A DNA stretch of 64,000 bases from Alphaproteobacteria bacterium. GTDB taxonomy: Bacteria; Pseudomonadota; Alphaproteobacteria; RF32; CAG-239. Within the stretch, counting starts at the first letter, position 1. Each line of letters opens with the position of its first letter. Below, piece by piece: positions 19,653-63,892 of this stretch. The notes beneath the pieces were generated by a model. That model saw nothing but the letters and a program-made list of their open reading frames with translations, did not search any database and was not told where the DNA came from. The translations under genes were made by a program, and so were the position numbers. The stretch is from NCBI GenBank assembly GCA_045637985.1, contig JAZUAM010000011.1, positions 2,764 to 66,763 of the forward strand. The letters are read 5' to 3'.

Positions 19653-20993
19653 CTATTGTTCCGGAATATACGGAGTGGCTAAAATTGCTTCCAACATTTC
19701 GTAACACTGTTCCAGAGAGAATTTGTCTTGTTTGCTTTGCGATAAAAAGTCTTCAATCATCGGATAGTAAAAAATTGCTTCATCAACTTCACGATTAGAT
19801 CCTTTTTTATACGCACCTAAACGAATCAACTCAGCCATATCTTCGTAAGAAGAGATATATTTTCGAGCTTTGGAAACCAGTTCTGCTTCTTCTTTTGTAT
19901 CACAATCGGGCATTGTTCTGGAAATAGAGCGCAAAATATTAATCGCAGGATATCGATTGCGTTCGGCAATAGAACGATCAAGCACAATATGTCCGTCAAG
20001 AATTGACCTGACAGCATCGGCAACAGGTTCATTATGATCATCACCATCAACCAAAACCGTGAACAACCCCGTAATTGTTCCGTTGCCGGAACCGGGGCCG
20101 GCACGTTCCAAAAGACGAGGAAGTTCGGCAAATACACTCGGGGTATATCCTTTTGATGCCGGAGGTTCTCCGATTGAAAGTGAAATCTCTCGTTGAGCCA
20201 TAGCAAAACGGGTAATAGAATCCATCATACATAAAACATTTTTATTTTCATCGCGAAAATATTCTGAAATTGCCATAGCAACATATGCAGCCTGACGTCT
20301 GAGTAACGGGCTTTCATCAGACGTTGCCAAAACCAAAACTGATTTTTTAAGACCTTCGGCACCTAAAACATCTTCGACAAATTCTTTAGCTTCTCGTCCG
20401 CGTTCACCGATTAAGCCTATGACAGATATATCCGAATCCGTGTGACGAGCCATCATTGACATTAGTGTTGATTTACCGACACCTGAGCCGGCAAAAATAC
20501 CCATACGTTGTCCTTTGCATATTGTTAAAAACGCATTAACTGCTTTTATACCCAAATCAACCTTACCGCTAACTCTGTCACGAAACTGAGCCGGTGGCGG
20601 AGATGATTTTATAAAATAGGGTTTACTGCCTTTTATAAGAGGACCTTTACCATCTATAGCTTCACCGAACGCGTTAACAATACGCCCCAACCAAGAAGGA
20701 TGAGGATATATCACCGGTTTTGCATCAACAACTTCGACTAAACAATTAATGCCTATGCCATCCATTGAACCATAAGGCATAAGCAAAATTTTATCATCTT
20801 TAAAACTTACAATCTCGCACGAAACTCTTTCATTTCGATTATTGATAACATTACATCTGTCCCCGATTGCCAAACTGTTTTGGATTCCGCTCACTTCGAC
20901 AAACAAACCCTGCACCCCGCTTACTCGACCATAGTAAGATGCAACGTCAATTTTTTCTATAGACTGGATGATATTATCGGTAAATTCGCCCAT
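19653..20993 (-). CDS. fliI: Flagellum-specific ATP synthase FliI
   Basis: Walker A GSGVGKST. GERGREAKEF motif of the F1/T3SS ATPase family. Start chosen at MGEFTDN, which is preceded by AAGGA. The ORF track extends it to 21116. Confidence 0.88.
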   Translation of the reverse strand: MGEFTDNIIQSIEKIDVASYYGRVSGVQGLFVEVSGIQNSLAIGDRCNVINNRNERVSCEIVSFKDDKILLMPYGSMDGIGINCLVEVVDAKPVIYPHPSWLGRIVNAFGEAIDGKGPLIKGSKPYFIKSSPPPAQFRDRVSGKVDLGIKAVNAFLTICKGQRMGIFAGSGVGKSTLMSMMARHTDSDISVIGLIGERGREAKEFVEDVLGAEGLKKSVLVLATSDESPLLRRQAAYVAMAISEYFRDENKNVLCMMDSITRFAMAQREISLSIGEPPASKGYTPSVFAELPRLLERAGPGSGNGTITGLFTVLVDGDDHNEPVADAVRSILDGHIVLDRSIAERNRYPAINILRSISRTMPDCDTKEEAELVSKARKYISSYEDMAELIRLGAYKKGSNREVDEAIFYYPMIEDFLSQSKQDKFSLEQCYEMLEAILATPYIPEQ

Positions 20994-21188
20994 ATTTTTC
21001 CTTTTTTCGCTAAACAAGCTAAAGAATACTATAATATTTTTCTTTGTACCAATAATATCAAGGTTATCAACACCTAAAACAGTGCATAATAAAAAACTGT
21101 TAATAATTATTAACAAAACTAAACAAATACAATTTATCGCTATATAGTAAAATCACTTAGTAAGTTTTTTAGAGAAGGATGTAGCGGA

Positions 21189-21949: not shown

Positions 21950-22648
21950 TTATTTTCTTATTTCAAAATCAACAAAATTTGTCTTTAAATACTCTATTAA
22001 TTCATTGTCATTAAAAATATTTTCACAGTCATAATCGCTTGTTTCTTTATCACTTTCTATAGGACGATATTTTTGTAAAAAATATTTCTTTACCCCCTTT
22101 TTTTTGAGAGATTTTGCAATACCTAACAAATCTTGCGAATTTAAAAACCTTGGATCGCATGTTGTTCGACATTCAAAGTCAATATTGCTTTCCAATAATA
22201 AAAGCAAGCTTTGCTCAACTCGTTTTAAATGATCTGCTCCGGTTATTTTTTGATAATGTTTTGCTTCAAACGGAGCTTTGATATCTAACCCTACCCAATC
22301 AATCAGAGGCAAAACTTTTGCTAAATGCTCGGGGCGATATCCTCCGGTATGAAGCCCTATTTTGAAACCTAAATCTTTTACCTGCTTGATAGCATCATAC
22401 AAAGCATCTTGAACTAAAGGTTCGCCACCGGAAAAAGTTACGGCATCAAGCTTACCAACCCGACTTTTTAAGAAATCAACAAATAAATCCCAAGAAAAAT
22501 CATTCTCTTTTAATATCGGACGGATAGATGCATTATGACAAAAGGGACACATCCACGGGCATCCCTGCATAAATACAACAGCTGTTAATACCCCCGGAAA
22601 ATCAACGGCGCTGAATTTCTCAACGCCGCCAACTACAATTTTAGACAT
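21950..22648 (-). CDS. nrdG: Anaerobic ribonucleoside-triphosphate reductase activating protein (radical SAM)
   Basis: CPWMCPFCHN CxxxCxxC motif. The likely start is MSKIVVGG at 22648. This leaves a 13-nt gap after the small ORF upstream. Confidence 0.85.
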   Translation of the reverse strand: MSKIVVGGVEKFSAVDFPGVLTAVVFMQGCPWMCPFCHNASIRPILKENDFSWDLFVDFLKSRVGKLDAVTFSGGEPLVQDALYDAIKQVKDLGFKIGLHTGGYRPEHLAKVLPLIDWVGLDIKAPFEAKHYQKITGADHLKRVEQSLLLLLESNIDFECRTTCDPRFLNSQDLLGIAKSLKKKGVKKYFLQKYRPIESDKETSDYDCENIFNDNELIEYLKTNFVDFEIRK

Positions 22649-22661
22649 ATATGATGCTCGA

Positions 22662-22892
22662 TTATTCTGCTGCAATTGCATACGCATTGTCTTCTGTATG
22701 ACAAGCGCAACCATCAATCGCTTTTAATTCAGAAAAGTTTACACGAGAGCGAAATTCTGATTTTTTGCCTACATTGAATTCTGAATATGGGCGCAAATAT
22801 CCCATAACACGTGTCCATACTTCACAAGGCTGTCTTTCTTCATCTGCAAGTTTGATATCTTCAAAATTAACAGTGGTCATTTTTTTCTCCAT
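22662..22892 (-). CDS. Stand-alone glycyl-radical C-terminal segment of NrdD, in the same frame as nrdD but separated by two stop codons
   Basis: 76 aa with EVWTRVMGYLRP...FNVGKKSEFRSRV. This matches the NrdD C-terminal RVxGY glycyl-radical loop. It is in the same reading frame as the upstream nrdD ORF, behind TAA-AGT-TAA. Confidence 0.55.
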   Translation of the reverse strand: MEKKMTTVNFEDIKLADEERQPCEVWTRVMGYLRPYSEFNVGKKSEFRSRVNFSELKAIDGCACHTEDNAYAIAAE

Positions 22893-22916
22893 ATTTCTTT
22901 CTATAAAAAATTAACT

Positions 22917-24974
22917 TTATGCAACATCTTTTCTTGATGCAGCGGCTCTCTTGGCTGCCTTTTTCTCCTCATCGCAGATTGGGCAGTACTTGTGTTCTCC
23001 TGAAATATATCCATGTTTCGGACAAATGGAAAAAGTAGGAGTTATGGTAATGTACGGCAAACGATAGTTTGTCAAAACACGTTTTACAATGTCACGGCAA
23101 ACTTTAGCAGATGAAATGCGTTGTCCCATATACAAGTGCAAAACTGTTCCACCGGTATATTTGGTCTGTAGTGTCGACTGCAAATCAAGTGCTTCAAAAG
23201 GATCATCCGTATATCCGACAGGTAATTGAGAAGAGTTGGTATAAAACGGATTCTCTTTAGTTCCTGCTTGGATAATATCCACATAGCGTTTTTTATCTTC
23301 ACGAGCAAAACGGGTTGTAGCACCTTCGGCCGGAGTGGCTTCAAGATTGTACATATGACCTGTTTCTTCTTGAATCTTGATTAATTTTTCGCGGATATAA
23401 TCCAAGAATTTAATAGCAAATTCTTGTCCCCATTGATCGGCTATTGAATGCTCATCATTGGTAAAGTTTCGGATCATTTCATTGATACCATTAACACCAA
23501 TGGTAGAGAAGTGATTGCGAAGTGTTCCCAAATAACGTTTGGTGAACGGGAACAAACCACCATCAATTAAACGTTGAATCAATTTACGTTTAATTTCGAG
23601 CGAAATTTTAGAAAGTTCCAATAACTCATCAACACGGGCGTATAAACCGGCTTCATCACCTTTATAAACATAACCTAAGCGAGCGCAGTTAAAAGTAACC
23701 ACTCCGATAGAGCCGGTCTGTTCAGCTGAACCGAACAAACCGTTTCCGCGAGCTAACAATTCGCGCAAGTCAAGCTGCAAACGGCAACACATTGAGCGGA
23801 TTTGTCCCGGTTTTAATACTGAATTGATGAAATTTTGGAAATAAGGCAACCCATATTTAGCGGTCATCTCAAACAACAATTCGGTGTTTTCATCTTCCCA
23901 CGGGAAGTCCGGTGTCATATTGTATGTCGGAATCGGGAATGTAAACGGACGACCTTTAATATCACCTTTCATCATAACTTCAATATATGCTTTGTTTATC
24001 ATATGCATTTCTTCTTGAAGTTCGCCATATGTAAATTCTTGTTCAACACCGGCAATAATAGGATGAGTTTCGCGCAAATCTTCCGGACATACCCAGTCGA
24101 ATGTAAAGTTAGTAAACGGTGTCTGAGATCCCCAACGTGACGGAACATTAAGATTGTAGATAAGTTCTTGCATGCATTGATATACTTGTTTGTATGTCAA
24201 GCCATCTTTTCTGATGTATGGAGCCAAATAGGTATCTACCGATGAAAATGCTTGTGCGCCGGCCCATTCATTCTGCAATGTTCCCATAAAATTGACCATT
24301 TGTCCCACAGCGGCAGAAAGATGTTTTGCCGGACCTGCTTCAGCTTTACCGGCAACACCGTTAAAACCTTCGTGAAGAAGATTTTTCAAAGACCAACCGG
24401 CACAATATGCAGCCAACATACTCAAATCGTGAATGTGGATATCGCCGTTGCGATGAGCCTCGCCGACAGCAGCAGGATAAACATGGCTGAGCCAATAGTT
24501 AGCCGTAACTTTACCGGATACGTTCAGAATCAATCCACCATTTGAATAACCTTGGTTTGCGTTTTCGTTAATACGCCAGTCTAATTTTTCCAAATACTCA
24601 TTAACAGAGCTTTCTACATCGACCATAACCTTGTGGTCCTGACGAGCACGCTGACGTTGATCTCGGTACAAAATATAAGCCTTAGCAGTAACAAAATAGT
24701 TTGCGGAAATCAAAACCTGTTCTACTACATCTTGGATTTGTTCAATCGACGGTAAAATTTCTGCAAATTTATGCTTTAATACTTTCAGAACTTGGGCCGT
24801 AAGCAACCAACTTTCTTCTTCTCCAAATTCTTTTGTTGTGGTGCCGGCTTTTTTAATAGCATTGTATATTTTAGAGCTATCAAACGGAGCTAGGGTACCA
24901 TCTCTTTTGGTAATATTTTCAATCCCTATTTTTTCTTCAGCGACTGAGGTCATTTTGTACTCTGATTCTGACAT
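22917..24974 (-). CDS. nrdD: Anaerobic ribonucleoside-triphosphate reductase (class III) catalytic core with ATP-cone and Zn-ribbon, lacking the glycyl-radical tail
   Basis: 685 aa. N-terminal ATP-cone, class III RNR core, C-terminal CPKHGY...CPIC Zn-ribbon. The ORF then ends without the glycine-radical motif. Confidence 0.88.
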   Translation of the reverse strand: MSESEYKMTSVAEEKIGIENITKRDGTLAPFDSSKIYNAIKKAGTTTKEFGEEESWLLTAQVLKVLKHKFAEILPSIEQIQDVVEQVLISANYFVTAKAYILYRDQRQRARQDHKVMVDVESSVNEYLEKLDWRINENANQGYSNGGLILNVSGKVTANYWLSHVYPAAVGEAHRNGDIHIHDLSMLAAYCAGWSLKNLLHEGFNGVAGKAEAGPAKHLSAAVGQMVNFMGTLQNEWAGAQAFSSVDTYLAPYIRKDGLTYKQVYQCMQELIYNLNVPSRWGSQTPFTNFTFDWVCPEDLRETHPIIAGVEQEFTYGELQEEMHMINKAYIEVMMKGDIKGRPFTFPIPTYNMTPDFPWEDENTELLFEMTAKYGLPYFQNFINSVLKPGQIRSMCCRLQLDLRELLARGNGLFGSAEQTGSIGVVTFNCARLGYVYKGDEAGLYARVDELLELSKISLEIKRKLIQRLIDGGLFPFTKRYLGTLRNHFSTIGVNGINEMIRNFTNDEHSIADQWGQEFAIKFLDYIREKLIKIQEETGHMYNLEATPAEGATTRFAREDKKRYVDIIQAGTKENPFYTNSSQLPVGYTDDPFEALDLQSTLQTKYTGGTVLHLYMGQRISSAKVCRDIVKRVLTNYRLPYITITPTFSICPKHGYISGEHKYCPICDEEKKAAKRAAASRKDVA

Positions 24975-34398: not shown

Positions 34399-35205
34399 TT
34401 AGCGGACGACATCTTCCAAATTCTCAAAAACCTTTTTGGCAGTGTGAAGAGCATCATCGGATTTTTGAGGCTTTCCGGCATATGTTAAAGAATATTGCAT
34501 CACCTTAAAACCGAAAGGATTGGTTGTATAATCCATTTTTTCTTCGTCTGTTTTTTCAATATCTTCGTATTTATCAAATTCAAGATACTGTATGCGTAAG
34601 TATGCTCGCCAATTAATTATATCAGGTTCCGGCATATCTTTTGTGGAAGTGTATGTTTTAAATGCCGCCATCCATAAATTATCAGTTAATCGACGTATTT
34701 GCTCTATTTCGACCTTCCGTCTCATTCGCAGACGAATAAAAGTTTTCAGTTGCTCTTTGTCTTGCTTGTTTACAAAATCATAATAATTACGCAGTCCGGA
34801 ATACCAATAAAATTTGGAATTTGTATCCCAACGATAATACAGGTCGGCTGTTGATCTGGGAATTGCATGTCTTGCTCTGACATATTCATCAATATATTTT
34901 TCAGTGAGCAAATCTCTTAGCTTAATTGCTGTTGTTGAAGACTGAACTTGTTCCAAACCATATGATACTTGATTTATTTTATAAAACATGGGAGAAGATG
35001 TTTTTTGTGGCAATAATAAGTAAATTGTCATGGTTAATATTATCGTTAAGCAAAAACTTATTACTGCAAAAATAACCAGTATTCGTGATGTCCAAAGATA
35101 TCGTCTTTCAGGGAATGAATTTATATGAAATCTTTCGGGATAAAGTCCAAGTTTATCAGGACTTTTTTTATCTCGATAGCGGAATACTGTTGAAAAAATA
35201 CTCAT
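34399..35205 (-). CDS. VirB8-family type IV secretion protein (paralog 1)
   Basis: 268 aa. Cytoplasmic N-terminus, ERRYLW, one transmembrane helix, LPQK, FYKIN and a C-terminal NPFGFKVMQY. Same order as VirB8 ERRAW-TM-LPLK...NPLGFxVxxY. Confidence 0.6.
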   Translation of the reverse strand: MSIFSTVFRYRDKKSPDKLGLYPERFHINSFPERRYLWTSRILVIFAVISFCLTIILTMTIYLLLPQKTSSPMFYKINQVSYGLEQVQSSTTAIKLRDLLTEKYIDEYVRARHAIPRSTADLYYRWDTNSKFYWYSGLRNYYDFVNKQDKEQLKTFIRLRMRRKVEIEQIRRLTDNLWMAAFKTYTSTKDMPEPDIINWRAYLRIQYLEFDKYEDIEKTDEEKMDYTTNPFGFKVMQYSLTYAGKPQKSDDALHTAKKVFENLEDVVR

Positions 35206-35217
35206 CCGAAGAGATCC

Positions 35218-35997
35218 TTAATATGCATATTGTTCTGATCGGACTTCTTTTGCCGTATTCAGATAACTTTGGGCATCATCGGGGGTGCCGACATATGATA
35301 AAGCATAATTTGTTATCAAGAAGCCAAACGGATTTTGATCTCTTAGAGATTTATTTTCATATGGAATCGGCGCCATAGTTGCGCGAACATATGCTCGCCA
35401 AATATTAATAATCGGAACTGTTTCACCGGGATAATAGTCCATTGTAATAAATTGAGCCTGCCAAAAACCTTTGGATATGGGCTTAATCCATTCTACCTCT
35501 GCCAAACGAACCAACCCTCGCATTTTGAAAGAGTTAATATTATTATTGATATCATTAGAAACAAAATCTTGATAAACTTTTCTGGATGACATCCAAAACA
35601 ATCTTGACCCTCTGCCCCAACGTGTCATTAACTCATCATAATCTGCTGTGATAGCATGACGCATTAAAATATATTCTTCTATAAAAGCTTCCGCAAGAAG
35701 ATCAATAGCAGCAACCGGTCTGATATGTCTTTCCAGAACATCTAATTGGCTTGAATGCTTAGAATACTGAAATAAAAGAGGATAAGCACTACGCTGAGGC
35801 AACATAAGGTAGATTGCCGATACCAACGTCATATTGAAACATATGCTTAAAGAAGCAAATATAACCAATAATCTTGAACTCCATAAATAGCGTCGCTCAG
35901 GCATTGCACTTGTGTGAATGGCCTCAGGATAAAGCCCCAACTTATCAGGGCTTTTTTTCTCCTTATATTTGAATACGGTCTTTAGTAAATCCAGCAT
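35218..35997 (-). CDS. VirB8-family type IV secretion protein (paralog 2)
   Basis: 259 aa. N-terminal 50 residues strongly similar to paralog 1 (KEKKSPDKLGLYPE...PERRYLWSSRLLVIFA). C-terminal NPFGFLITNYAL. Confidence 0.6.
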   Translation of the reverse strand: MLDLLKTVFKYKEKKSPDKLGLYPEAIHTSAMPERRYLWSSRLLVIFASLSICFNMTLVSAIYLMLPQRSAYPLLFQYSKHSSQLDVLERHIRPVAAIDLLAEAFIEEYILMRHAITADYDELMTRWGRGSRLFWMSSRKVYQDFVSNDINNNINSFKMRGLVRLAEVEWIKPISKGFWQAQFITMDYYPGETVPIINIWRAYVRATMAPIPYENKSLRDQNPFGFLITNYALSYVGTPDDAQSYLNTAKEVRSEQYAY

Positions 35998-54567: not shown

Positions 54568-55866
54568 TTATTCATCTTCTTCATCTTTGATACGAACAAT
54601 ATCTGCTCCAACAGAACGAAGCTTTTCTTCCAATTTTTCATATCCTCGATCAAGATGATATACTCTATTAACTATTGTTTCTCCCTCGGCAATAAGTCCT
54701 GCTAAAATAAGAGCAAATGATGCTCTCAGATCTGTTGCCATAACTTGAGCGCCGGAGAGTTTGTCAACACAGCGTACTATTGCTGATGCATGACCATGAA
54801 CATTAATATTCGCCCCCATACGCAAAAGTTCCGGCACATGCATAAAGCGATTTTCAAAAATTGTTTCCGTTACCATTGATGCTCCATCTGCTGTAAGCAT
54901 TAAGGCTAAAAATTGTGCTTGAAGATCTGTCGGGAATCCGGGGAAAGGTTCGGTCATAATATCTTGCCCAATAAGCTTTCTGTTCTTTGCATCAATAATA
55001 ATACCTGTTTCGGTTTCTTCAATCCTAACGCCCATATCTTGCAACACTTGCAGAGGACGGCGCAAAGTTTCTGAACGGGCATTTATAAGTTCTATGCAAC
55101 CTCTGGTTATTGCGGCAGCTACGGCATATGAACCGGCCTCTATTCTATCGGCAATAACTTTGTGTACTGTTCCATGAAGTTTTTCAACTCCGTCAATTGT
55201 CAATACAGCTGTTCCGATGCCACTGATTTTAGCTCCCATCGAATTAAGCATTTTGGCTAAATCACCTATTTCCGGTTCTTTGGCGGCATTTTCTAAAACT
55301 GTACGTCCTTCAGCCAAAACGGCGGCCATCAATACATTACAGGTAGCACCGACCGAAACACCGGGAAATATTATGTGGGCGCCCTTTAACCTTCCTTCTG
55401 TGTTTGCATATATATAGCCATTGCGAATTTCTATCTTTGCTCCCATTTTTTCTAAGGATGAAAGATGAATATCCATCGGACGAGCGCCAATTGCACATCC
55501 GCCGGGAAGAGAAAGCTCACATTTACCAAAACGCGCAAGTAATGGCCCCAAAACGTAGTATGATGCGCGCATTTTGCGAACATAATCATATGGTGCAGTA
55601 ATACTTTCAATCTCTCTGGTACGATATGAATATGTTTTGGTCGCGTGGCCATCAACAAAGTCGTCAAAATCATTAATCTTGGTACCAAGTTGTTCCAAAA
55701 GCTTGTTCATCGCACGAATATCAGAAAGCATCGGCATATTTGTTAATGTAATAGTTTCATCAGTAAGAAGCGAAGCACAAATCAGCGGCAATGCTGCATT
55801 TTTGGCACCACTAATAAAAATCTTTCCTTCTAAAGCTTTACCGCCACGAATTTTAATCTTGTCCAT
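54568..55866 (-). CDS. murA: UDP-N-acetylglucosamine 1-carboxyvinyltransferase
   Basis: 432 aa. [19 protein letters not shown]. The active-site Cys lies in the [11 protein letters not shown] loop. Confidence 0.93.
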
Positions 55867-56008
55867 TTTTAGAGGCCTCCTCTTTTAACTGCTCACGTTT
55901 TTTTTGTTGTTGTTTTCTTTTTTCTAAATTTTTTTGCAGAGCCTTGGCTTCACGTTCAAAACGTTGATCATACCGAGGTTTGGTTGGAGATTTACACTCT
56001 TTTGACAT
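55853..56008 (-). CDS. Candidate 51-aa basic K/Q-rich small protein overlapping the murA start
   Basis: AAGGA 8 nt before ATG at 56008. Encodes [51 protein letters not shown]. Its stop lies 14 nt inside murA. Not in the ORF track. Confidence 0.3.
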
Positions 56009-56147
56009 AGCTTTTCCTTTGTATCTATATTTCCGTTTTTAGTTATATCATATAAAAATAAAAAAATAAGTAAAATAATAAAAAATCCCTTGATTTTTAT
56101 AAAATGGTTTTGTATGTTGAGCTTCGCAAGATAGTATAGAATTATTT

Positions 56148-56222
56148 TGCCGCTATAGCTCAGTGGTAGAGCACACCCTTGGTAAGGGTGGGGTCGTAAG
56201 TCCGATTCTTACTAGCGGCACC
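56148..56222 (+). tRNA. tRNA-Thr(GGU)
   Basis: GCCGCTATAGCTCAGTGGTAGAGCACACCCTTGGTAAGGGTG...TAGCGGCACCA. Cloverleaf with anticodon loop TTGGTAA. T-loop TCCGATT. Confidence 0.85.
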
Positions 56223-56225
56223 ATT

Positions 56226-56254
56226 AAAACAGCCTCCTTTACGGAGGCTTTTTT
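56226..56254 (+). terminator. Rho-independent terminator after tRNA-Thr
   Basis: AGCCTCC-TTTAC-GGAGGCT followed by T6. Confidence 0.65.
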
Positions 56255-56402
56255 AATGGTTTGACGATAGTTAGAAGCGGACTTGTCCGGAGTGGATAGT
56301 TGGTGAAAACGAGTGTTGAGCTTAGCAAATCGCTTAGCGAAATACGAAGTTTGAACCATACGACACGAGGAGGACCCGCGAATATTATGAGCGGGAGTAC
56401 CC

Positions 56403-56421
56403 ATTCTTACTAGCGGCACCA
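56403..56421 (+). repeat. Perfect 19-nt direct repeat of the tRNA-Thr 3' end (att-like), 181 bp downstream of the tRNA
   Basis: ATTCTTACTAGCGGCACCA at 56204-56222 (inside the tRNA) and again at 56403-56421. Both copies are followed by a similar hairpin plus T-run. Confidence 0.7.
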
Positions 56422-57205
56422 TTTGTTAAAACCGTTCCTAAAGGAGCGGTTTTTGCTTTATCAGGGTTGAATCCCATAAAGTCCGATAATTTGTTTCCCA
56501 AAAACAGCATTTTCTCGTCAATTATCGGACTTTTTCATTTTCTTTTTTTGTTTTATCTGTTATAAAAGCAGAAAAGGAGCAATGAATGATAGAATATTTT
56601 GATGTCCTAGATGAGCAAGGTCATAAAATCGGCAAGACCAAAGCACGTTCAGAAGTTCATAGAGATGGTGATTGGCATAAGGCTGTTCATATATGGATAG
56701 TGAATGATAAAGATGAAATTCTTTTACAAAAAAGAAGCCCGAATAAAGACAGTCACCCTAATATGTGGGATATTTCCAGTGCCGGACATTTAACTGCCGG
56801 TGATGATTCTTTATCAGGCGCAATCAGGGAAATAAAAGAAGAATTAGGTGTAGATATATTGCCTTCACAGCTAACTCTTATAGGAACAAGAAATAGTTCA
56901 AGTAAGCCTAAAACAACATTTATTAATAATGAATTTAACGATGTCTATTTACTTCGGTTGTCATTGAATTTAGATAAAATCATACTTCAAGAAAATGAAG
57001 TTTCCGAGGTTAAGTATATTCCTATTGATGAATTTAGGCATATGATAAAGACCGGAGATGAAACTCTTTTAATGCACAATGATGAATTTGAAATGCTTTT
57101 TAAGGCATTAGGTTATAAATTATAAAGATTCCATAAATATGCAGTCTTTTCAATTAACTGCTTATAATCATCATAATTTTCACTCCGATAATCGCAAAGT
57201 ATCGT
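56416..57205 (+). mobile_element. Repeat-bounded single-gene cassette/islet 1 (Nudix cargo), putative integrative remnant at tRNA-Thr
   Basis: The left end GCACCATTTGTTAAAACC-hairpin...AAAGTCCGATAATT is about 80% identical to the left end of the next cassette. The right end TATAATCATCATAATTTTCACTCCGATAATCGCA matches the right end of the next cassette in 29 of 34 positions. Confidence 0.4.
56586..57125 (+). CDS. Nudix hydrolase
   Basis: 179 aa. Nudix box GHLTAGDDSLSGAIREIKEELGV. AAAGGAG Shine-Dalgarno 7 nt upstream. Confidence 0.85.
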   Translation: MIEYFDVLDEQGHKIGKTKARSEVHRDGDWHKAVHIWIVNDKDEILLQKRSPNKDSHPNMWDISSAGHLTAGDDSLSGAIREIKEELGVDILPSQLTLIGTRNSSSKPKTTFINNEFNDVYLLRLSLNLDKIILQENEVSEVKYIPIDEFRHMIKTGDETLLMHNDEFEMLFKALGYKL

Positions 57206-58103
57206 GCACCATTTGACAAAACCGCCTCCAAATAGGCGGTTTTTGTTATATCAGTGTTATATTCCTCAAAGTCCGATAATTGTAAATATATTTACAGGTA
57301 TTAAGGCAATAATTTATGTATGTCGTACTCATCATAACCTTCGTAATAATAGCTGACATCAATGCCTTTCATAAATATTTCACGCTCATCAATTTTATCG
57401 GTCAGGGCATTTTTCAAAAGATGTTTAATTTCAATGTCTTTTATCGGGCTACGTTCCATTGCCGATAGATAATCTTCTTTATCAATATTGTTCCAATCAA
57501 CAACCATTTTCAGTTCTTTTTTAAATATTAGATCAAGCCAAATTCTGGTTGCGCGTCCGTTACCTTCTCTAAAAGGATGCGCAATATTCATCTCTACATA
57601 TTTTTCAACAATTTCATCAAAAGTTGATTGTGGCATTTTCTCTATATTTTTTAATGATTGTTCTAAATACATAACGGGAGCAAAACGAAAATTACCTTTA
57701 GATATATTAACATCACGTATTTGACCGGCAAAGTCATAAATATCTTCAAATAAAAATTTATGTATTTGTTGTAATCCTTTAATTGTTCCAACTTTAAGCT
57801 TATCAATCTTGCCGCTATCAAAGAGCTTAACAGCTTTTTCTTTACTGATTTTTTCTTCTGCCTTATTTAGCTCTGTCTGACTGCTAATGTTTAATTTGTT
57901 TTTTAAAACCATCTCTGTCCCTTTTGAAACATTTTTGATGTATTATATGATATAATTACTAAAATTTACATAATAGAATTACTTTGCTAACAAATTAAAG
58001 AACATCTTTATTTGAACCATCCTGCTCCGGAGACAACTCTAACTTATACCCCAACTTTCTATAATCATCGTAATTTTCAGTTCGATAATTGCATGAGTTA
58101 CGC
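57206..58103 (+). mobile_element. Repeat-bounded single-gene cassette/islet 2 (Fic cargo)
   Basis: Left end GCACCATTTGACAAAACCGCCTCCAAATAGGCGGTTTTTG...AAAGTCCGATAATTG. Right end TATAATCATCGTAATTTTCAGTTCGATAATTGCA, followed by GCACCATTTG at 58104. Confidence 0.4.
57301..57912 (-). CDS. fic: Class III Fic-domain AMP-transferase (NmFic-like, with a C-terminal autoinhibitory helix)
   Basis: 203 aa. Fic motif [13 protein letters not shown]-terminal SYYYEG, the inhibitory S/TxxxEG. Long colinear similarity to the Neisseria meningitidis class III Fic (GLQQIH.FLF...[17 protein letters not shown]; [21 protein letters not shown]). Confidence 0.85.
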
Positions 58104-58210
58104 GCACCATTTGTTAAAATACAAACCTTTGAACATTGAAATATCAGACAAACTTACTCATTGTCAAAATGCTTTTTTTATGCTACAAAACTATGAACAA
58201 GGAGATAAAA

Positions 58211-58933
58211 ATGTTTCCATTGCTTTCTGTTATAACTATTTGCAGAAATGAACCTTTTATTGAAGAAACCTGCAAAAGTATTGTTAATCAATCAAATCAA
58301 AGTTTTGAATGGATTGTTGTAGATGGTGCATCAACAGATGGTACTCTTGAAAAATTATCCAGATATCAAAAAAGAATAGACACTTTTATATCGGAAAAAG
58401 ATGGCGGTGTGTATTTTGCGATGAATAAAGGTATAACGCAAGCTCACGGCAAATATTTATTGTTTATGAATGGGGGAGACTTGTTTTACAATGAAGAAAT
58501 TGTTAAAATGATAACTCCCTATTTAACCAAAGAGCGAGCTGAGGTGTTTTATGGAGATTCATACAGATTGTTTGAAAATGAAAAAGATTGTTTTATAAAG
58601 ACATATCCTGACAAGATAACAAAATCTTTCTTCTTAACAAATACGTTAGCTCACCAGTCATCCTTTATAAAAAAAGAACTTTTTGAAAAATTTGGAGGAT
58701 ATAGAGAGGATTTCAGAATCGTAAGCGATAAAGAAAAATGGCTAAAATTTACAGATAATGATGTCAAATTTTTTCATATTCCCTATCCTCTGTCTTGCTT
58801 TAGGATGAATGGTCTTTCACGACAACAATCTGATATATTGATACAAGAAAAGAAAAAAATGTTAGAAGAATATTTTCCTAAAAATATGCTTTATGAAACC
58901 GATGTTCCTTATTTACAAAAAATTTTTGATTAA
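58211..58933 (+). CDS. Family 2 glycosyltransferase
   Basis: Start at the ATG preceded by AGGAG (58211). LSVITICRNE...VVDGASTDGT, DGG and an ED motif, typical of GT2. Confidence 0.8.
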   Translation: MFPLLSVITICRNEPFIEETCKSIVNQSNQSFEWIVVDGASTDGTLEKLSRYQKRIDTFISEKDGGVYFAMNKGITQAHGKYLLFMNGGDLFYNEEIVKMITPYLTKERAEVFYGDSYRLFENEKDCFIKTYPDKITKSFFLTNTLAHQSSFIKKELFEKFGGYREDFRIVSDKEKWLKFTDNDVKFFHIPYPLSCFRMNGLSRQQSDILIQEKKKMLEEYFPKNMLYETDVPYLQKIFD

Positions 58934-59061
58934 TTCAGAACATAACGTTGATACGATAGAGTTATAATTTATTTAAATGATAGCCAAGCAAATGATGCTA
59001 CAGTGTCGCAAAAATTAATTTAACTAAAAATAAATACTTGTTTTGATAGAATGCGCTGAAT

Positions 59062-59955
59062 TTGCTTGCTAATATTGTTGTTTGGAATTATCGAATGAGT
59101 TTATTTCAATTTTTTATCGGTTTGTTGCTATTGTTTTTTTGGGTTATACGCCCATTGCTGTATAAACCTATTGCTGAATATTTTCCGGCAAGGCAGTCCG
59201 TAACTTTTACTGCTTTTTACCTTATTTTAGGTCTAATTATTACTGAACCGGCTTTGGGACATTTAATAAATTTTAACGGAAAAAACTCTTTGTTTTCTCC
59301 ATATATTTTAATTTCCGTTTACAAAGGAATTGGTCTTTTTTATCTTGTTACTTTGCAACAAGTAATCAACAAAAAAAGCTTATCATCCTCTGTGTTTTTG
59401 AGTTTTATTGCAATGGCTTTGGGGTGTTTGGCCAACAATATCTTTTTTAATGAAAATATCGGATTGATTAAAGTTTTGTGCATTTGCGGTTTCGGTATTT
59501 TGGGCGTACTTTTTATATATAAAGGTGATGGCAAACGACTTTCTCGTACAGACGTTTCTTTCTTTTTTATTACGGCATTAATAATGGCATCATTTTCGGT
59601 ATCTGACCATGTAGCAATTCCTCAAGTCGGATGGTATGCTCATATGCTTGTTTCGTCTGTTGTGATGTGTTTGATGTGCTTGTTTTATAAAGATGCACGA
59701 ACCGGTTTTCGAATCGTATTCAGTGATAAAAAAATTGTTTATGCCGGAATAGCATATACAATGTCAGAATTTTTATGTATTTACGCCTCGATTAATATTT
59801 TACCGGTGTCAATCGTTGCTGTGTTTTTAAGATTGTCAGTTCCGGTAGTTATGATTATATCGGCAATAAAGTATAAAGAGCAAAGCGTAAAAAATCAGTT
59901 GAGTTTCAGTTTGATAGCAATTTTGCTAGCTCTGCCTATAATTTTGATGAAGTAA
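59062..59955 (+). CDS. Polytopic membrane protein, about 10 transmembrane helices, possibly DMT/EamA-like
   Basis: 297 aa, highly hydrophobic with about 10 helices. The likely start is MSLFQF at 59095. The family call is inference only. Confidence 0.4.
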   Translation: MLANIVVWNYRMSLFQFFIGLLLLFFWVIRPLLYKPIAEYFPARQSVTFTAFYLILGLIITEPALGHLINFNGKNSLFSPYILISVYKGIGLFYLVTLQQVINKKSLSSSVFLSFIAMALGCLANNIFFNENIGLIKVLCICGFGILGVLFIYKGDGKRLSRTDVSFFFITALIMASFSVSDHVAIPQVGWYAHMLVSSVVMCLMCLFYKDARTGFRIVFSDKKIVYAGIAYTMSEFLCIYASINILPVSIVAVFLRLSVPVVMIISAIKYKEQSVKNQLSFSLIAILLALPIILMK

Positions 59956-59966
59956 TCTTAGTTTGC

Positions 59967-60016
59967 AAAAAAAACCGACAGCGTCGACCTTAAAAAGGGC
60001 GACGCTGTTTGGTTTT
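59967..60016. terminator. Bidirectional terminator between convergent genes
   Basis: ACAGCGTCG/CGACGCTGT 9-bp stem, extended by AAACCG/TGGTTT. Flanked by an A-run and a T-run. Confidence 0.55.
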
Positions 60017-60026
60017 AAGAAGTTAC

Positions 60027-61259
60027 CTATAACTTAATGCCGGTGACATTGTAAAGGTACTTCTTTGTTCTTTCGGCAACTGTCTTCGGATCTGTGCCGG
60101 CAAGCTTGCTGTAACTGTCAAGAGCGCTGATGCGGTCAATGTAGTTATCAGCAATCGATGTCAACACCCATCGTCCCTCCGCGTTACGAATAATTTCAGC
60201 TTCCATAAGTTTCAGCCAAGCTAAAGAAATCCGTCTTTCTTTAGCTACAAACTCGTTTTCAGTAAACGTCTCTTCAAGGACGTTCAATTTGAAAACGTGT
60301 TTGTGTGGCTGAATAGCCGCTGTTCGACGAAACAGAATCGGATCTGTTTCGTATCTGCTGTTCGGTTTTGTTGGTATGGGAATCATATCAACAAAGCCTT
60401 CTTGGCAGATTAAGCGCCGTTTGTAGGCCGAGTACTCTTCATCAATCTCAAAATTAACAGCCGATACGGCAGTATAATCCTGAGCTGGAAGAAAGCTCCA
60501 TTTGTCGCCTAACAGCCTCTGCCACTCGTCCTTCGGCAAGATACTTACGTGCAGTGAGAAAATGTAGTATCCTGATAAATCTTTGGTCAAGAAGATACAT
60601 CTCTCCGGCAAGCTATCGACCTTTTCAGCCTTTTGCAAAAGACTGTACTCGTCAAGTTTGCAGTAATTTACCGCATCTCGCAACGAGATGGACATGATTA
60701 CATACTTACCAGCCTTCTCCAAATCTTCGATGAATGCCGGAATATCCTCGTAGGGGATATGCTCAGCAACATCGTTACAGAAGACAATGTCTGCTCGTTG
60801 ATATAACGGAGCAGAGAGCTCCGGAACACCGATGTCATAACGCTGCACAGTAACATTGCCATACTGAGTTACTTGAGACAGCTCAGCTGTCCTCATAGAG
60901 AGGCGCGCGCGGTCAAACCAAGGCTCGAGCATATTAAGGATATCCTCGTAGCTCTCTCCTTCTTGAAGCATATACTCAATGTCTCGCCCTTGCTCATTGA
61001 TTATCCAGCCTACGACATTGGCGGCATCACTTCGACCACAGCCGTAGTCCGTGATAATCAGAGTATTAAGCGTTAGACCCTGTTTAGATACCAACGCCAT
61101 CACATTAGCCATCATCTCTTTGATGAGATCATTGGCAGATGTCCCGTAAGAAGATGATTCACCATGCACCTCCGTGTAGAGTTCTTCGGTACTCAAACTT
61201 GCTTCGTAAAGAGAGTTTTCGTTGAGAAAGAAAACCTCTTGTTTCTTTTTTTGTTCCAT
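60027..61259 (-). CDS. Class I SAM-dependent methyltransferase with an extra C-terminal domain
   Basis: 410 aa. Motif I ITDYGCGRSD. Acidic motif II and DVAEHIPYED (motif III-like). The C-terminal 200 aa are unknown. Confidence 0.55.
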   Translation of the reverse strand: MEQKKKQEVFFLNENSLYEASLSTEELYTEVHGESSSYGTSANDLIKEMMANVMALVSKQGLTLNTLIITDYGCGRSDAANVVGWIINEQGRDIEYMLQEGESYEDILNMLEPWFDRARLSMRTAELSQVTQYGNVTVQRYDIGVPELSAPLYQRADIVFCNDVAEHIPYEDIPAFIEDLEKAGKYVIMSISLRDAVNYCKLDEYSLLQKAEKVDSLPERCIFLTKDLSGYYIFSLHVSILPKDEWQRLLGDKWSFLPAQDYTAVSAVNFEIDEEYSAYKRRLICQEGFVDMIPIPTKPNSRYETDPILFRRTAAIQPHKHVFKLNVLEETFTENEFVAKERRISLAWLKLMEAEIIRNAEGRWVLTSIADNYIDRISALDSYSKLAGTDPKTVAERTKKYLYNVTGIKL

Positions 61260-61365
61260 AAATATAGTAAATTAAAAGTTAGTATTTCCTGAGAGAGAAT
61301 TTACCATATTTTCTTGACAGAATCAACAAAATTTTATTCAGATGTTATGCAACCAGACAAAAACC

Positions 61366-62247
61366 TCACATTTCATCCATAAGTTTTTTGTAATAATCAA
61401 TAACAGCCCTTACTCGGGGAATATCTTTAGATTTCTTTTTAGCAATAAGGTATATGGTTGGTGTTTCCTCACATTTGAAATTATCTAAGGAGACAAAACC
61501 TTCTTCTTTACTGTAACGCAGAGGCATAATAGCGATACCTCCGCCACAACGAACGACCTCGGTCGCGGCATAAGTCGAATTGGTAACATAGCGAGTATGT
61601 TTGGCATTTTTTACAATATTTTTCCATTCGGGGATAAATTCTTGGAGCTGAACTCGAGTTATCATCCAATGATTTTCTAACATATCGTCAAAATCTTTGG
61701 GATATCCGCGTTCTGACAGATATTTGGGTGAGGCAAAATAGCCACATTCAATATTTTTGGAATATAAAATTACAACGTCATTATTATCAGGAGGAAGAAA
61801 TGTTAAACCGATGTCTGAATCCATATTATTAAAATTGGTGTTATCCATTACGGTACGATTTATGATATTTATATTAGGGTATTCATCAAAAAAATTACCA
61901 ATGGTTATAGGTAACAAATTTGTTGAAACGCTTAGCGGCATACTGACGAAAACGTCACCTTTTAAATCTTTGGGTGGAGAGCTATCTTGGTATATATTAT
62001 TGAAAATATCTTCGATTATATGTGCATGACGTACCAATTCTTTGCCACGAATGGATAATTGTGATCCCTTGGAAGAATTTATCAAAAGTTCATAGCCAAC
62101 TTCGCTTTCAAGAGCCGATATGTACTTATTAATTGTGTCTATAGATAGTCCGAGTATCTCCGAAACCCTCCTCTTGCCACCGCATTTATCAATTGCGGCT
62201 AAAATAAACAGGGCTTGAAAACTCATAAAATTCTTTTTTCTTATCAT
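61366..62247 (-). CDS. LysR-family transcriptional regulator
   Basis: N-terminal HTH LFILAAIDKCGGKRRVSEILGLSIDTINKYISALE. C-terminal LysR substrate-binding domain. Confidence 0.8.
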   Translation of the reverse strand: MIRKKNFMSFQALFILAAIDKCGGKRRVSEILGLSIDTINKYISALESEVGYELLINSSKGSQLSIRGKELVRHAHIIEDIFNNIYQDSSPPKDLKGDVFVSMPLSVSTNLLPITIGNFFDEYPNINIINRTVMDNTNFNNMDSDIGLTFLPPDNNDVVILYSKNIECGYFASPKYLSERGYPKDFDDMLENHWMITRVQLQEFIPEWKNIVKNAKHTRYVTNSTYAATEVVRCGGGIAIMPLRYSKEEGFVSLDNFKCEETPTIYLIAKKKSKDIPRVRAVIDYYKKLMDEM

Positions 62248-62370
62248 ATATTTCGAACTTTCTTGGGTTTCAAATCGATTTATAAAAATATTGTAACACT
62301 ATGAATATTGTGCATCTTTTTATAAACGTCAAGAAAAAATGATAAATTTATTTTTTGCAACTTATAGTTT

Positions 62371-62417
62371 AAAAAGCGGAAAGCCGCTGACCCTCAATTC
62401 AGCGGCTTTCTTGTTTT
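62371..62417 (-). terminator. Strong terminator hairpin
   Basis: GAAAGCCGCTG/CAGCGGCTTTC 11-bp stem. On the minus strand it is followed by TTTTT. Confidence 0.55.
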
Positions 62418-62650
62418 AGTTGTCTGCCATACTTACCCAGATACATGTGCATCTTGGTAAATAAGTAGGAGACCTAATCCGTACAAGGGTTGTTAGTAAC
62501 TCGAGGCGCTGTGATACGCTATTAATTTCTACCACCCTATAGGAAGAAATCAAACATCGCGAAGACAGCATAACTATCTCATTAGCACGACAACCCTTTC
62601 CATAAATCACCATGATTATCATCAAGATGATTAGAAAAATACAAAATAAA
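62418..62650 (-). other. GC-enriched structured segment, either a candidate ncRNA or a structured 3'UTR of the flavodiiron gene
   Basis: About 230 nt. It is visibly more GC-rich than the flanks and contains long-range complementary blocks (AAGGGTTGT / ACAACCCTT). The 79-aa ORF here is implausible. A strong terminator lies immediately downstream. Confidence 0.25.
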
Positions 62651-62725
62651 TACATAGCCTTAAATTTTAATGGGTATACTTATATAGTATTCTTCTTGTT
62701 TGTCAATAGCCTTTTTATAAAAAAA

Positions 62726-63892
62726 TTACATCAAAAGTGCATCGGCCAATTTTTCAAGTTGAGCGATATCTGATTTTTTTACGGCGGATTTGATTGTGAC
62801 TTTGTCTTCTATTATGTTAATATTTTTTAATGATGACATTTCGCTCATCATTTTTTGACCAGACGCCGGAGCCCATGAACCATTTTCAATAAAACCGACT
62901 TTGCGATTTTGATAATTTTTGGACTTTAGCTTGTTGATAAATGTTTCCATATACGGGAACAAACCACCGTCATATGTCGGTGATGCTAAAACCATTCTAT
63001 CATAACGAAAGGCATCTTCAACACATTCGGCGATATCATCTCGTGCTAAATCGGCAATTGCAACTTTGGCAGCTCCTTTTTGTAATAATATTTCTTTGAG
63101 CTTTTCTGCTGCAACTTTGGTGTTGCCGTAAATTGAAGTGTAAGCGATGAATATTCCTTCATCTTCCGGACGATAACTGCTCCATATATCGTATTTATTG
63201 ATGTAATAGCTCAAATTATCCGTCAACATCGGACCATGTAAAGGATAAATTTTTTGAATATCTAACGTTGCAGCTTTTTTTAGCAACGATTGAACCGGCG
63301 CACCATATTTTCCGACAATATTTATGTAATAACGACGAGCTTCGCAATCCCATTCTTCATCAACATCTAATGCTCCGAATTTACCGAAAGCATCTGCCGA
63401 AAAAAGTATTTTTTCTTTTTTATCATAAGCAACCATAACTTCCGGCCAATGCACCATAGGCGCCATAACAAATGTCAAACTGTGTTCGCCTAATGAAAGT
63501 TCACTCCCTTCAGCAACAACAATCTGTCTGTCGGTTAAATCTAAATCTTCAAAAAACTGCGACATCATTTGAAAAGTTTTGGCGTTAGCTACAACTTTAG
63601 CATTGGTGTATCGATTTAAGAACTTTTCGATACTTCCGGCATGATCCGGCTCCATATGTAAAACAACCAAATAATCGGGGGTGTTGCCGGATAAAACATT
63701 TTCAAGATTTTGGCACCATTCATCACAAAAACGCAAATCAACCGTATCCATTACGGCAATTTTATCATCTTTAATAACATATGAATTGTACGATATCCCG
63801 TTAGGAACAACATATTGCCCTTCGAATAAGTCTATCTCTTTATCATCAACACCAATATAGTAAATGTTGTCGGTTAACTGATTATTTTGCAT
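62726..63892 (-). CDS. Flavodiiron protein (FprA / rubredoxin:oxygen oxidoreductase-like), metallo-beta-lactamase plus flavodoxin domains
   Basis: 388 aa. N-terminal di-iron beta-lactamase-like domain (HMEPDH-type His cluster) and a C-terminal flavodoxin-like domain (TSIYGNT). Confidence 0.85.
   Translation of the reverse strand: MQNNQLTDNIYYIGVDDKEIDLFEGQYVVPNGISYNSYVIKDDKIAVMDTVDLRFCDEWCQNLENVLSGNTPDYLVVLHMEPDHAGSIEKFLNRYTNAKVVANAKTFQMMSQFFEDLDLTDRQIVVAEGSELSLGEHSLTFVMAPMVHWPEVMVAYDKKEKILFSADAFGKFGALDVDEEWDCEARRYYINIVGKYGAPVQSLLKKAATLDIQKIYPLHGPMLTDNLSYYINKYDIWSSYRPEDEGIFIAYTSIYGNTKVAAEKLKEILLQKGAAKVAIADLARDDIAECVEDAFRYDRMVLASPTYDGGLFPYMETFINKLKSKNYQNRKVGFIENGSWAPASGQKMMSEMSSLKNINIIEDKVTIKSAVKKSDIAQLEKLADALLM

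Follow-up and report, generated by a model that had tools for sequence, protein, structure and literature searches.

Small gene cassettes behind a tRNA-Thr gene of an uncultured alphaproteobacterium: a probable array of non-autonomous integrative units

How does a bacterial chromosome come to carry, directly behind a tRNA gene, a row of single genes that are each bounded by copies of the tRNA 3′ end, with no integrase in 64 kb of sequence? The question is raised by a tRNA-Thr(GGT) gene in a 64-kb stretch of the alphaproteobacterial contig JAZUAM010000011.1 (the whole stretch analyzed, hereafter the window), which is followed by a non-coding module (S) and by two segments (cassettes 1 and 2) carrying a Nudix gene and a Fic gene, respectively. 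An earlier reading made from the letters alone (the sequence-only reading) had taken the 3′ end of the tRNA to be the target of serial site-specific integrations or the base of a cassette array. This proposal is supported by a family of conserved ends, by polymorphism among strains, and by a large serine recombinase (LSR) linked to the same ends in related loci. We consider it probable that an LSR attachment site in the 3′ end of tRNA-Thr has here accumulated, by accretion, an array of small integrative cassettes that are not autonomous.

Structure of the array behind tRNA-Thr

The features of the array are listed below with their positions in the window.

56149–56223, + strand: tRNA-Thr(GGT), the putative attB-bearing gene (ARAGORN; Rfam tRNA, 70 bits)
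56199–56206, + strand: AGTCCGAT motif in the T-loop region of tRNA-Thr, followed by 12 nt and then CACCA (56219–56223)
56224–56421, + strand: S module, with a terminator hairpin (56231–56249; extended stem 56220–56260), a structured non-coding core (56267–56421) and a 19-nt tRNA copy (56403–56421)
56422–57211, + strand: cassette 1 (790 bp, Nudix cargo), between conserved ends
56428–56453 and 56480–56531, + strand: cassette 1 left end, consisting of a terminator and a 52-bp inverted pair AGTCCGAT-N36-ATCGGACT, respectively
56586–57125, + strand: Nudix open reading frame (ORF) of cassette 1 (Pfam NUDIX, 4.8e-18)
57157–57213, + strand: cassette 1 right end, with the motif ACTCCGAT (57182–57189), then 17 nt, then CACCA (57207–57211)
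57212–58109, + strand: cassette 2 (898 bp, class III Fic cargo by sequence), between conserved ends
57218–57243 and 57270–57277, + strand: cassette 2 left end, consisting of a terminator and the left half only of the inverted pair (AGTCCGAT), respectively
57301–57912, − strand: Fic ORF of cassette 2 (Pfam Fic)
58054–58111, + strand: cassette 2 right end, with the motif AGTTCGAT (58079–58086), then 18 nt, then CACCA (58105–58109)
58110–58211, + strand: decayed left end at the junction to the conserved flank (TTTGTTAAAA ... ATATCAG), with neither a hairpin (fold z = 0.06) nor an inverted pair

The 3′-terminal 19 nt of tRNA-Thr, ATTCTTACTAGCGGCACCA (56205–56223), recur as an exact second copy at 56403–56421. 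The sequence-only reading had recognized this repeat and placed it 181 bp downstream; the gap is 179 nt, and the distance from start to start is 198 nt. The core GCACCATTTG occurs at 56416 and, as had been claimed, at 57206 and 58104, with no further copy in the window. The expected count in 64 kb is 0.17, and three copies were reached in none of 100 shuffles. The two segments between the cores indeed share their ends: the left ends (56416–56491 and 57206–57281) are 78% identical over 76 nt, and the right ends (57156–57196 and 58053–58093) show 83% identity across 41 nt. Hairpins resembling terminators lie behind the tRNA (56231–56249), the second core (56428–56453), and the third core (57218–57243). 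A hairpin had been described after every copy, but folding of the junctions gave none 3′ of the fourth core (58104).

Pfam and phmmer searches assigned one cargo gene to each segment, a Nudix hydrolase on the + strand and a Fic protein on the − strand, which agrees with the sequence-only reading. The Fic protein matched the Enterococcus faecalis Fic protein 5NV5 (phmmer, E = 6.5e-98) and NmFic (3.6e-74), and its C-terminal motif reads SYYYEG; on these sequence features, it is a class III Fic protein. It also matched the PADLOC candidate PDC-S04 (3.5e-107), and the Nudix proteins matched PDC-S07 weakly. Among the window ORFs of 110 aa or more, Pfam detected no integrase, recombinase, or transposase domain, and tblastn of the window with a related LSR gave no match. 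The search for a recombinase that had been recommended was thus negative within the window and, as described below, positive in related arrays.

Related arrays, strain polymorphism, and the serine recombinase

The comparison set consisted of 80 metagenome loci, obtained from a scan with the 19-nt tRNA end, and nine same-species contigs, to which an identical LysR protein and a MurA of 97% identity led. In most of the 80 loci, murA, tRNA-Thr, and the downstream repeats are ordered as in the window. The flanks of the conspecific contigs are 99.3% identical among themselves and are 89% (left) and 93–96% (right) identical to those of the window. Six array configurations were found downstream of tRNA-Thr among conspecific contigs, as follows.

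Window: S1, Nudix, Fic
L180: S1, then contig end
L174, L175, and L179: a single 229-aa cassette
L177: S2, 333-aa cassette
L178: S2, Nudix′, then contig end
GCA_045597005.1 (L176 + L169): Peptidase_S51 cassette, S2, Nudix′

L176 and L178 form an occupied and empty pair, in which L176 equals L178 plus a precise insertion of a 1054-bp Peptidase_S51 cassette. The junction in L178 reads ...TAGCGGCACCATTT / AACACAAAG, and that in L176 reads ...GGCACCATTT (GTTAAAATCGCTCC ... GTATCGCGCACCATTT) AACACAAAG, with the inserted DNA in parentheses; the insertion lies at ...GGCACCATTT / AACAC. The variable cassette number that serial integration at this tRNA led one to expect is present among the relatives, together with differing cassette content and this occupied and empty pair. 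No same-species contig extending across the site (L174/L175/L179, L177, or GCA_045597005.1) carries the Fic cassette. In the closest genome, GCA_045597005.1, the adjacent flank is 94% identical to the window, whereas the Nudix cassette (L169/L178) is only 81% identical. The array DNA is also more divergent than its flanks among the conspecific contigs (89.6% identity for the S2–left end stretch vs 99.3%).

Other copies of the end repeats, which the sequence-only reading had suggested looking for, are numerous. The right-end consensus is CTTAAAATCcTCATAAtTTTTAGTCCGATAAtCGCACAGTATCGC / GCACCATTT (approximately 55 nt), and a profile of it detected 38 copies in the 80 related loci, each of them located downstream of tRNA-Thr and oriented like the tRNA; in the window, it matched only the two known right ends. 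The related units are 0.7–2.8 kb long, carry 1–3 ORFs on either strand, and are stacked in arrays that reach at least five units. The same cassette is found in differing contexts: the Nudix-860 cassette in L088, L095, L149, and L150; a 2409-bp restriction-modification (R-M) cassette in L092 and L150; and a 1411-bp cassette in L093, L137, and L149. Similarity between shared cassettes starts and stops exactly at CACCATTT. Some junctions read CACCAG or TACCA, so the invariant core is approximately (C/T)ACCA and corresponds to the CCA terminus of the tRNA. Even between hosts with only ~70% identity in murA, the cassette ends are conserved. Scans of viral contigs with the tRNA 3′ end and with the junction of right end and core gave only chance matches inside coding regions.

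The cargo of the related arrays includes Nudix and SGNH hydrolases, Dam-type and N4/N6 methylases with putative nucleases, IceA, HNH, Fic-HTH, NERD, HD, and GIY-YIG proteins, a small resolvase, EEP proteins, APH kinases, Peptidase_S51, glycosyl- and methyltransferases, lipoproteins, and many unknowns. In L163 (tRNA-oriented 3365–3650), an N-terminal Fic remnant 65% identical to the window Fic lies directly upstream of a right end. This locus belongs to a divergent host (murA ~70% identical), and the Fic cassette type is therefore common to distant members of the group.

The recombinase linked to these ends is a serine recombinase. The tRNA-proximal unit of L088 (8.7 kb), which ends in a right end of the family, carries a serine recombinase gene (Resolvase, Recombinase, and Zn_ribbon_recom domains) together with an R-M system. 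Full-length database homologues are 514–548 aa long. The L088 gene is frameshifted relative to them, and its interpretation as a 382-aa short form was rejected. An intact 514-aa LSR gene is present in seven loci (L148, L111, L147, L105, L155, L120, and L122) and always adjoins the core, reading into the tRNA. In L111, the intact LSR occurs together with recombinase-less cassettes. In ~20 further loci, the LSR gene carries a frameshift, is truncated, or persists only as a C-terminal stub, with remnants often of 29–134 aa. Taken together, these copies form a visible deletion series leading from an autonomous element to a cassette.

The LSR ORF is convergent with tRNA-Thr and terminates inside it, as in the example at L148:8006–9547 (tRNA-oriented coordinates, strand opposite to the tRNA; proteins P0019, P0008, and P0005). 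P0019 ends in KWCR followed by the stop codon TAG, which is the reverse complement of CTA in CTAGCGG. Where a cassette lies upstream, the ORF runs through the core into the right end of that cassette, and P0005 continues ...KWCAILCAYRTKEYGDFK.... The C-terminal tail of the LSR is thus set by the DNA left of the core, being either KWCR and stop at the tRNA or ~30 extra residues from the neighboring right end. The right end was considered as cargo coding sequence and rejected in that role, yet it is open in the frame of the LSR read-through. An LSR with 51% identity from another alphaproteobacterium terminates inside tRNA-Gln (L165:7195–8745; tRNA-Gln at 8713–8786), and one with 47% identity reads through a sequence resembling the right end. 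On known plasmids and phages, no relative of the LSR above 36% identity was found.

Small serine recombinases of the resolvase/invertase type (~200 aa, Resolvase and HTH domains) were observed either within cassettes, as their cargo, or beside the large recombinase (L119, tRNA-oriented 1069–1668; L166:5980–6582). By analogy, they recall the DsiA and CcrA partners of DsiB and CcrB.

Geometry of the putative attachment sites, the S module, and competing explanations

We compared the spacing between the T-loop motif and the core in the tRNAs and in the cassette ends. Every tRNA has 12 nt between AGTCCGAT and CACCA, and 22 of the 27 distinct right ends have 17 nt there. In serine integrases, the motif for the zinc-ribbon domain lies at positions 16–24 of attP half-sites and at positions 11–19 of attB half-sites, which is a shift of 5 bp (PMC3783163). 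The difference between 12 and 17 nt reproduces this attB/attP shift, in the left half-sites only. By this geometry, the tRNA would be a B-type left half-site and the right end a P-type left half-site.

The left end (~110–130 nt) contains a new terminator for the tRNA and the inverted pair AGTCCGAT-N36-ATCGGACT, located at +56–59, or at +80 within LSR stubs. The spacer of the pair is exactly 36 nt in 45 of the 51 distinct left-end sites, giving a length of 52 bp, which is the size of an attP site. In the LSR-bearing element, both arms are encoded in the C-terminal coding region of the recombinase (KSPI ... LSDC). The pair is kept in the non-coding DNA of the cassettes, which argues for a function at the DNA level. 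The 52-bp pair was rejected as the crossover site: its central dinucleotide is not conserved, and all breakpoints fall in the core. It is putatively an accessory or regulatory recombinase-binding site.

The AGTCCGAT motif, which the tRNA shares with the cassette ends, includes an unusual residue. The T loop of tRNA-Thr is UCCGAUU, with C at position 55, and this position is nearly universally U (pseudouridine 55) in tRNAs. The more distant tRNA matches in L090, L112, L114, and L144 have the canonical GTTCGATT and are without cassette ends.

In regards to the S module, its homologues (among them those in L095, L103, and L125) are 70–81% identical, and the murA genes of their hosts are 70–72% identical. 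RNAalifold applied to four divergent copies gave 50 pairs, of which 12 have compensatory changes; by pair count, 95.6% are paired, and the 12 double-change pairs compare with 4.4 ± 1.5 in shuffles (reached in 0 of 500) and 0–2 in slid controls. The window copy has a minimum free energy z of −3.28. A covariance model of S (R1) found one copy in the window (172.6 bits) and 1–2 full or partial copies per locus in ~20 human-gut loci, and it matched the rumen copies weakly. Rfam (E-value mode, 55500–59000) gave only the tRNA above threshold. S was rejected as a tmRNA (ARAGORN found none) and as a coding sequence, the antisense 89-aa ORF (56153–56422) being broken by frame-shifting indels in the homologues. 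These comparisons identify S as a conserved structured non-coding module and not a trivial duplication.

S lies directly after the tRNA or after the right end and CACCA of a cassette (L088, L093, L139, L150, and L176) and is absent from some conspecific strains. It behaves as a displaced or secondary attachment site, a role that is putative. The S2 type of the conspecific contigs L176–L178 resembles variants taken to be from rumen samples. The only features common to all S types are the tRNA-like 3′ end, the terminator, and a hairpin, CGGACTTAC...GTAAGTCCG, that repeats the T-arm motif in inverted form. A common structure for the human-gut, rumen, and S2 variants was sought and discarded; only the first hairpin aligns. 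L138 contains two tandem S copies, and in the S copy of L100, part of the 3′ end is duplicated internally. The tandem duplication suggests that S-type modules may themselves be substrates of the recombination system or of slippage.

These elements can be combined into a proposed mechanism. The autonomous element occurs in related strains and runs from the core through an oppositely oriented LSR gene, whose final codons and stop codon fall within the tRNA 3′ end, to the cargo and the right end; a cassette keeps only the two ends, with 1–3 cargo genes between them. LSR supplied in trans would recombine the tRNA end (AGTCCGAT, 12 nt, CACCA) with a cassette circle in which CACCA joins the right end to the left end, and each new arrival would displace the older units and the S module rightward. 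The repeats, the end family, the polymorphism among strains, the breakpoints in (C/T)ACCA, the linkage to the LSR, and the motif spacing are observations; that the LSR is the catalyst, that it acts in trans, that the intermediates are circular, and that S and the 52-bp site play a part are inferences.

Several observations weigh against an LSR-driven accretion array. The right half-site beside the core shows no inverted AGTCCGAT, and the site is asymmetric; the 52-bp pair is without a conserved central dinucleotide. The 64-kb window contains no recombinase, and its array therefore depends on a recombinase elsewhere or is currently immobile. The right end of cassette 2 is decaying (AGTTCGAT with an 18-nt spacing) and its left end is without half of the inverted pair, so both window units may already be fixed. 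Furthermore, this right end and ~25 nt upstream of it are 93% identical to the right end of a different cassette, the 229-aa cassette of L174, so that some of the turnover may reflect homologous exchange in which the conserved ends serve as arms. The same identity would also fit a fossil array, in which the conserved ends are relics of past LSR elements that, once foreign DNA has been taken up, now provide only the homology through which cassettes are replaced, and no site-specific recombination occurs at present. Most arrays have no intact LSR on their contig and many have C-terminal stubs only, and the greater divergence of the array relative to its flanks is what allelic replacement would give. 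However, the conservation of the ends across hosts with murA ~70% identical argues for selection on the sites, the breakpoints fall in the 5–8-nt core and not anywhere in the 50–130-nt homologous ends, and intact LSR genes reside together with recombinase-less cassettes, for example in L111. We regard the fossil array as unlikely.

An integron-like or other tyrosine-recombinase system would have attC-type folded sites and an IntI-like or tRNA-specific tyrosine integrase encoded elsewhere. The array does look like promoter-poor single-gene cassettes, and the 19-nt tRNA duplication bounding S resembles the attachment repeats of tyrosine integrases, which start in the T loop. This explanation is very improbable, given that no Phage_integrase domain was found in window ORFs of at least 110 aa or in the island ORFs of L088 (the one related island scanned with Pfam), that the recombinase physically linked to the ends is a serine recombinase, and that the cassettes occur in both orientations, each with its own terminator. 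Moreover, single-stranded DNA folds of the junctions gave only the terminator hairpin and the left-end pair, and the attC-like pairing of right and left ends, whose presence the sequence-only reading had raised, is absent. A tyrosine system is largely refuted for the cassettes, S being a separate matter. That the repeats are ordinary terminators or regulatory boxes in vertically inherited, immobile DNA is hardly credible: three of the four cores do have a terminator-like hairpin downstream, but 99% identical strains differ in the presence or absence of cassettes, identical cassettes occur in different neighborhoods, and the ends are confined to the region downstream of tRNA-Thr.

Starting from the accretion array, we advance tentatively, as something less than an even chance, a broader interpretation for gut and rumen alphaproteobacteria. 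The system may be a serine-recombinase analogue of the integron that uses the tRNA-Thr 3′ end as a dedicated docking site, in which a minimal LSR, its C-terminus rewritten by the integration state, takes up, stacks, and reshuffles miniature defense and toxin cassettes in trans. Each cassette would bring a terminator for the tRNA and a 52-bp accessory site, and S, a hitherto undescribed structured RNA with a mimic of the tRNA 3′ end at its terminus, might take part in the process or regulate it. If the cassettes are mobilized in trans, this would be a second, mechanistically independent way to capture and shuffle single genes at one chromosomal site, operating in uncultured alphaproteobacteria of the human gut and rumen, and it would explain strain-level variation in defense and toxin genes (Fic/PDC-S04, Nudix, R-M, HNH, NERD, and APH kinases). 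The tRNA and cassette ends would also provide natural attB/attP pairs with a legible motif geometry, of possible use in engineering with serine integrases. Concrete oddities of the system are the recombinase ORF that overlaps the attachment core and the conserved structured S module.

Comparison with known systems, host, and flanking genes

The sequence-only reading had concluded that the layout is not that of a classical prophage, integrative and conjugative element (ICE), or integron. This conclusion holds, and no structural, lysis, or conjugation module was found in the 790- and 898-bp segments; analogues nevertheless exist in the ssrA islands of Dehalococcoides and the composite islands of the staphylococcal cassette chromosome (SCC). 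Literature searches returned no description of a serine-recombinase cassette system at tRNA-Thr. By analogy, the closest described system is that of the Dehalococcoides ssrA islands, along with the SCC composites. The ssrA islands are inserted in tandem at the tmRNA 3′ end with 20-bp repeats and the DsiB recombinase, and 15 of them, which have no integration module, were read as cis-mobilizable or similar to cis-mobilizable elements (CIMEs) (PMC3146451). The two systems share tandem islands behind a tRNA-like gene, each bounded by a direct repeat of the gene 3′ end; a ~540-aa CcrB-like serine recombinase that adjoins attL on the reverse strand; and a short conserved motif just upstream of each repeat. 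The arrays described here differ in their target (tRNA-Thr, not tmRNA) and in their gut and rumen alphaproteobacterial hosts. The ssrA islands are multi-gene, whereas the present units are miniature (0.7–2.8 kb, 1–3 genes) and have long conserved ends with a 52-bp inverted pair, a recombinase ORF that overlaps the tRNA, and the S module. No integration module of the DsiA/ParB/RecF type was seen here, and the recombinases are likened by description only.

The SCCmec and SCC composites (CcrAB/CcrC) are likewise integrated by a serine recombinase at the 3′ end of a housekeeping gene and form tandem arrays that include ccr-less pseudo-SCC units bounded by integration-site repeats. They differ in their protein-coding target (rlmH), unit size (20–60 kb), and staphylococcal hosts, and they do not replace a tRNA terminator. 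CIMEs are flanked by attachment sites, are without integration and transfer genes, and are regarded as deletion derivatives of autonomous elements that are moved with, or by, the recombinase of a neighbor. The Nudix and Fic units have one cargo ORF each, are flanked by attachment-like ends, and carry no integrase, relaxase, or transfer gene. They thus resemble the CIMEs of streptococcal accretion with ICEs and with integrative mobilizable elements in having functional-looking attachment flanks and no integration or transfer genes. Classical CIMEs are larger and occur with tyrosine-recombinase ICEs, whereas the deletion series of the LSR is directly visible here. SCC elements are summarized alongside the ssrA islands in the same source (PMC3146451).

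As in integrons, the cassettes are very small, mostly single-gene, and shuffled between strains, with entry at one end of the array and a cargo rich in defense- and toxin-like genes; sedentary integrons are likewise described as defense biobanks (10.1101/2024.07.02.601686). Unlike integrons, the arrays described here have no IntI (in window ORFs of at least 110 aa), no attI or cassette promoter (Pc), and no folded attC; the linked recombinase is a serine recombinase, and the cassettes lie in either orientation with a terminator each. The tycheposons of Prochlorococcus are multi-kb elements with their own integrase, a tyrosine recombinase in 910 of 937, and often with replication genes (10.1101/2020.12.28.424599). 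Their integration into tRNA genes likewise leaves partial tRNAs, successive arrivals push older elements inward, degraded remnants occur, and a minority carry a large serine recombinase. The window units have a partial tRNA repeat but no integrase or replication gene, and the tycheposon preprint does not contain a family of recombinase-less single-gene cassettes with conserved ends (10.1101/2020.12.28.424599).

Many of the related contigs derive from human-gut metagenomes, and others derive from samples taken to be rumen. Exact protein look-ups of MurA, Fic, the 410-aa ORF of the right flank, and a 51-aa ORF returned no record, and that of Nudix returned a single match on a 667-nt contig. The META look-up matched short contigs only, all of which stop ahead of the tRNA. 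A MurA search of genome contigs gave only distant relatives (at most 62% identity). Elsewhere in the window, the following genes were observed.

34399–35997, − strand: two VirB8-domain paralogues in tandem, with no other type IV secretion system genes nearby
19653–21116, − strand: FliI/type III secretion-type ATPase
21950–24974, − strand: NrdD and its activase NrdG

NrdD/NrdG and the flavodiiron protein of the right flank probably indicate an anaerobic or microaerophilic lifestyle of this low-GC host. This gene content, with FliI and the VirB8 paralogues, and the labeling of MurA homologues as "Alphaproteobacteria bacterium" suggest that the host is an uncultured and probably anaerobic alphaproteobacterium.

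The larger block behind the Fic segment, which the sequence-only reading had noted as following the array, is conserved flank and not a cassette. It was rejected as a larger cassette: no right end was found at E values up to 50, and the block is 93–96% identical in relatives. Homology of the flank to the relatives begins at 58030–58123. The flanking genes are as follows.

54568–55866, − strand: murA, conserved left flank, linked to tRNA-Thr in all related loci
58212–63892: right flank overall, 93–96% nucleotide identity and synteny in L169, L174, L175, L177, and L179 (genes assigned by Pfam)
58212–58933, + strand: GT2
59062–59955, + strand: EamA
60027–61259, − strand: 410-aa unknown ORF
61366–62247, − strand: LysR
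62726–63892, − strand: flavodiiron protein

The 410-aa ORF has no Pfam match and lies in a kilobase of 45% GC, compared with ~35% elsewhere. The conspecific contig L177 is without this ORF and the EamA gene, and its LysR gene (318 aa) abuts GT2, which is a second indel polymorphism, inside the flank.

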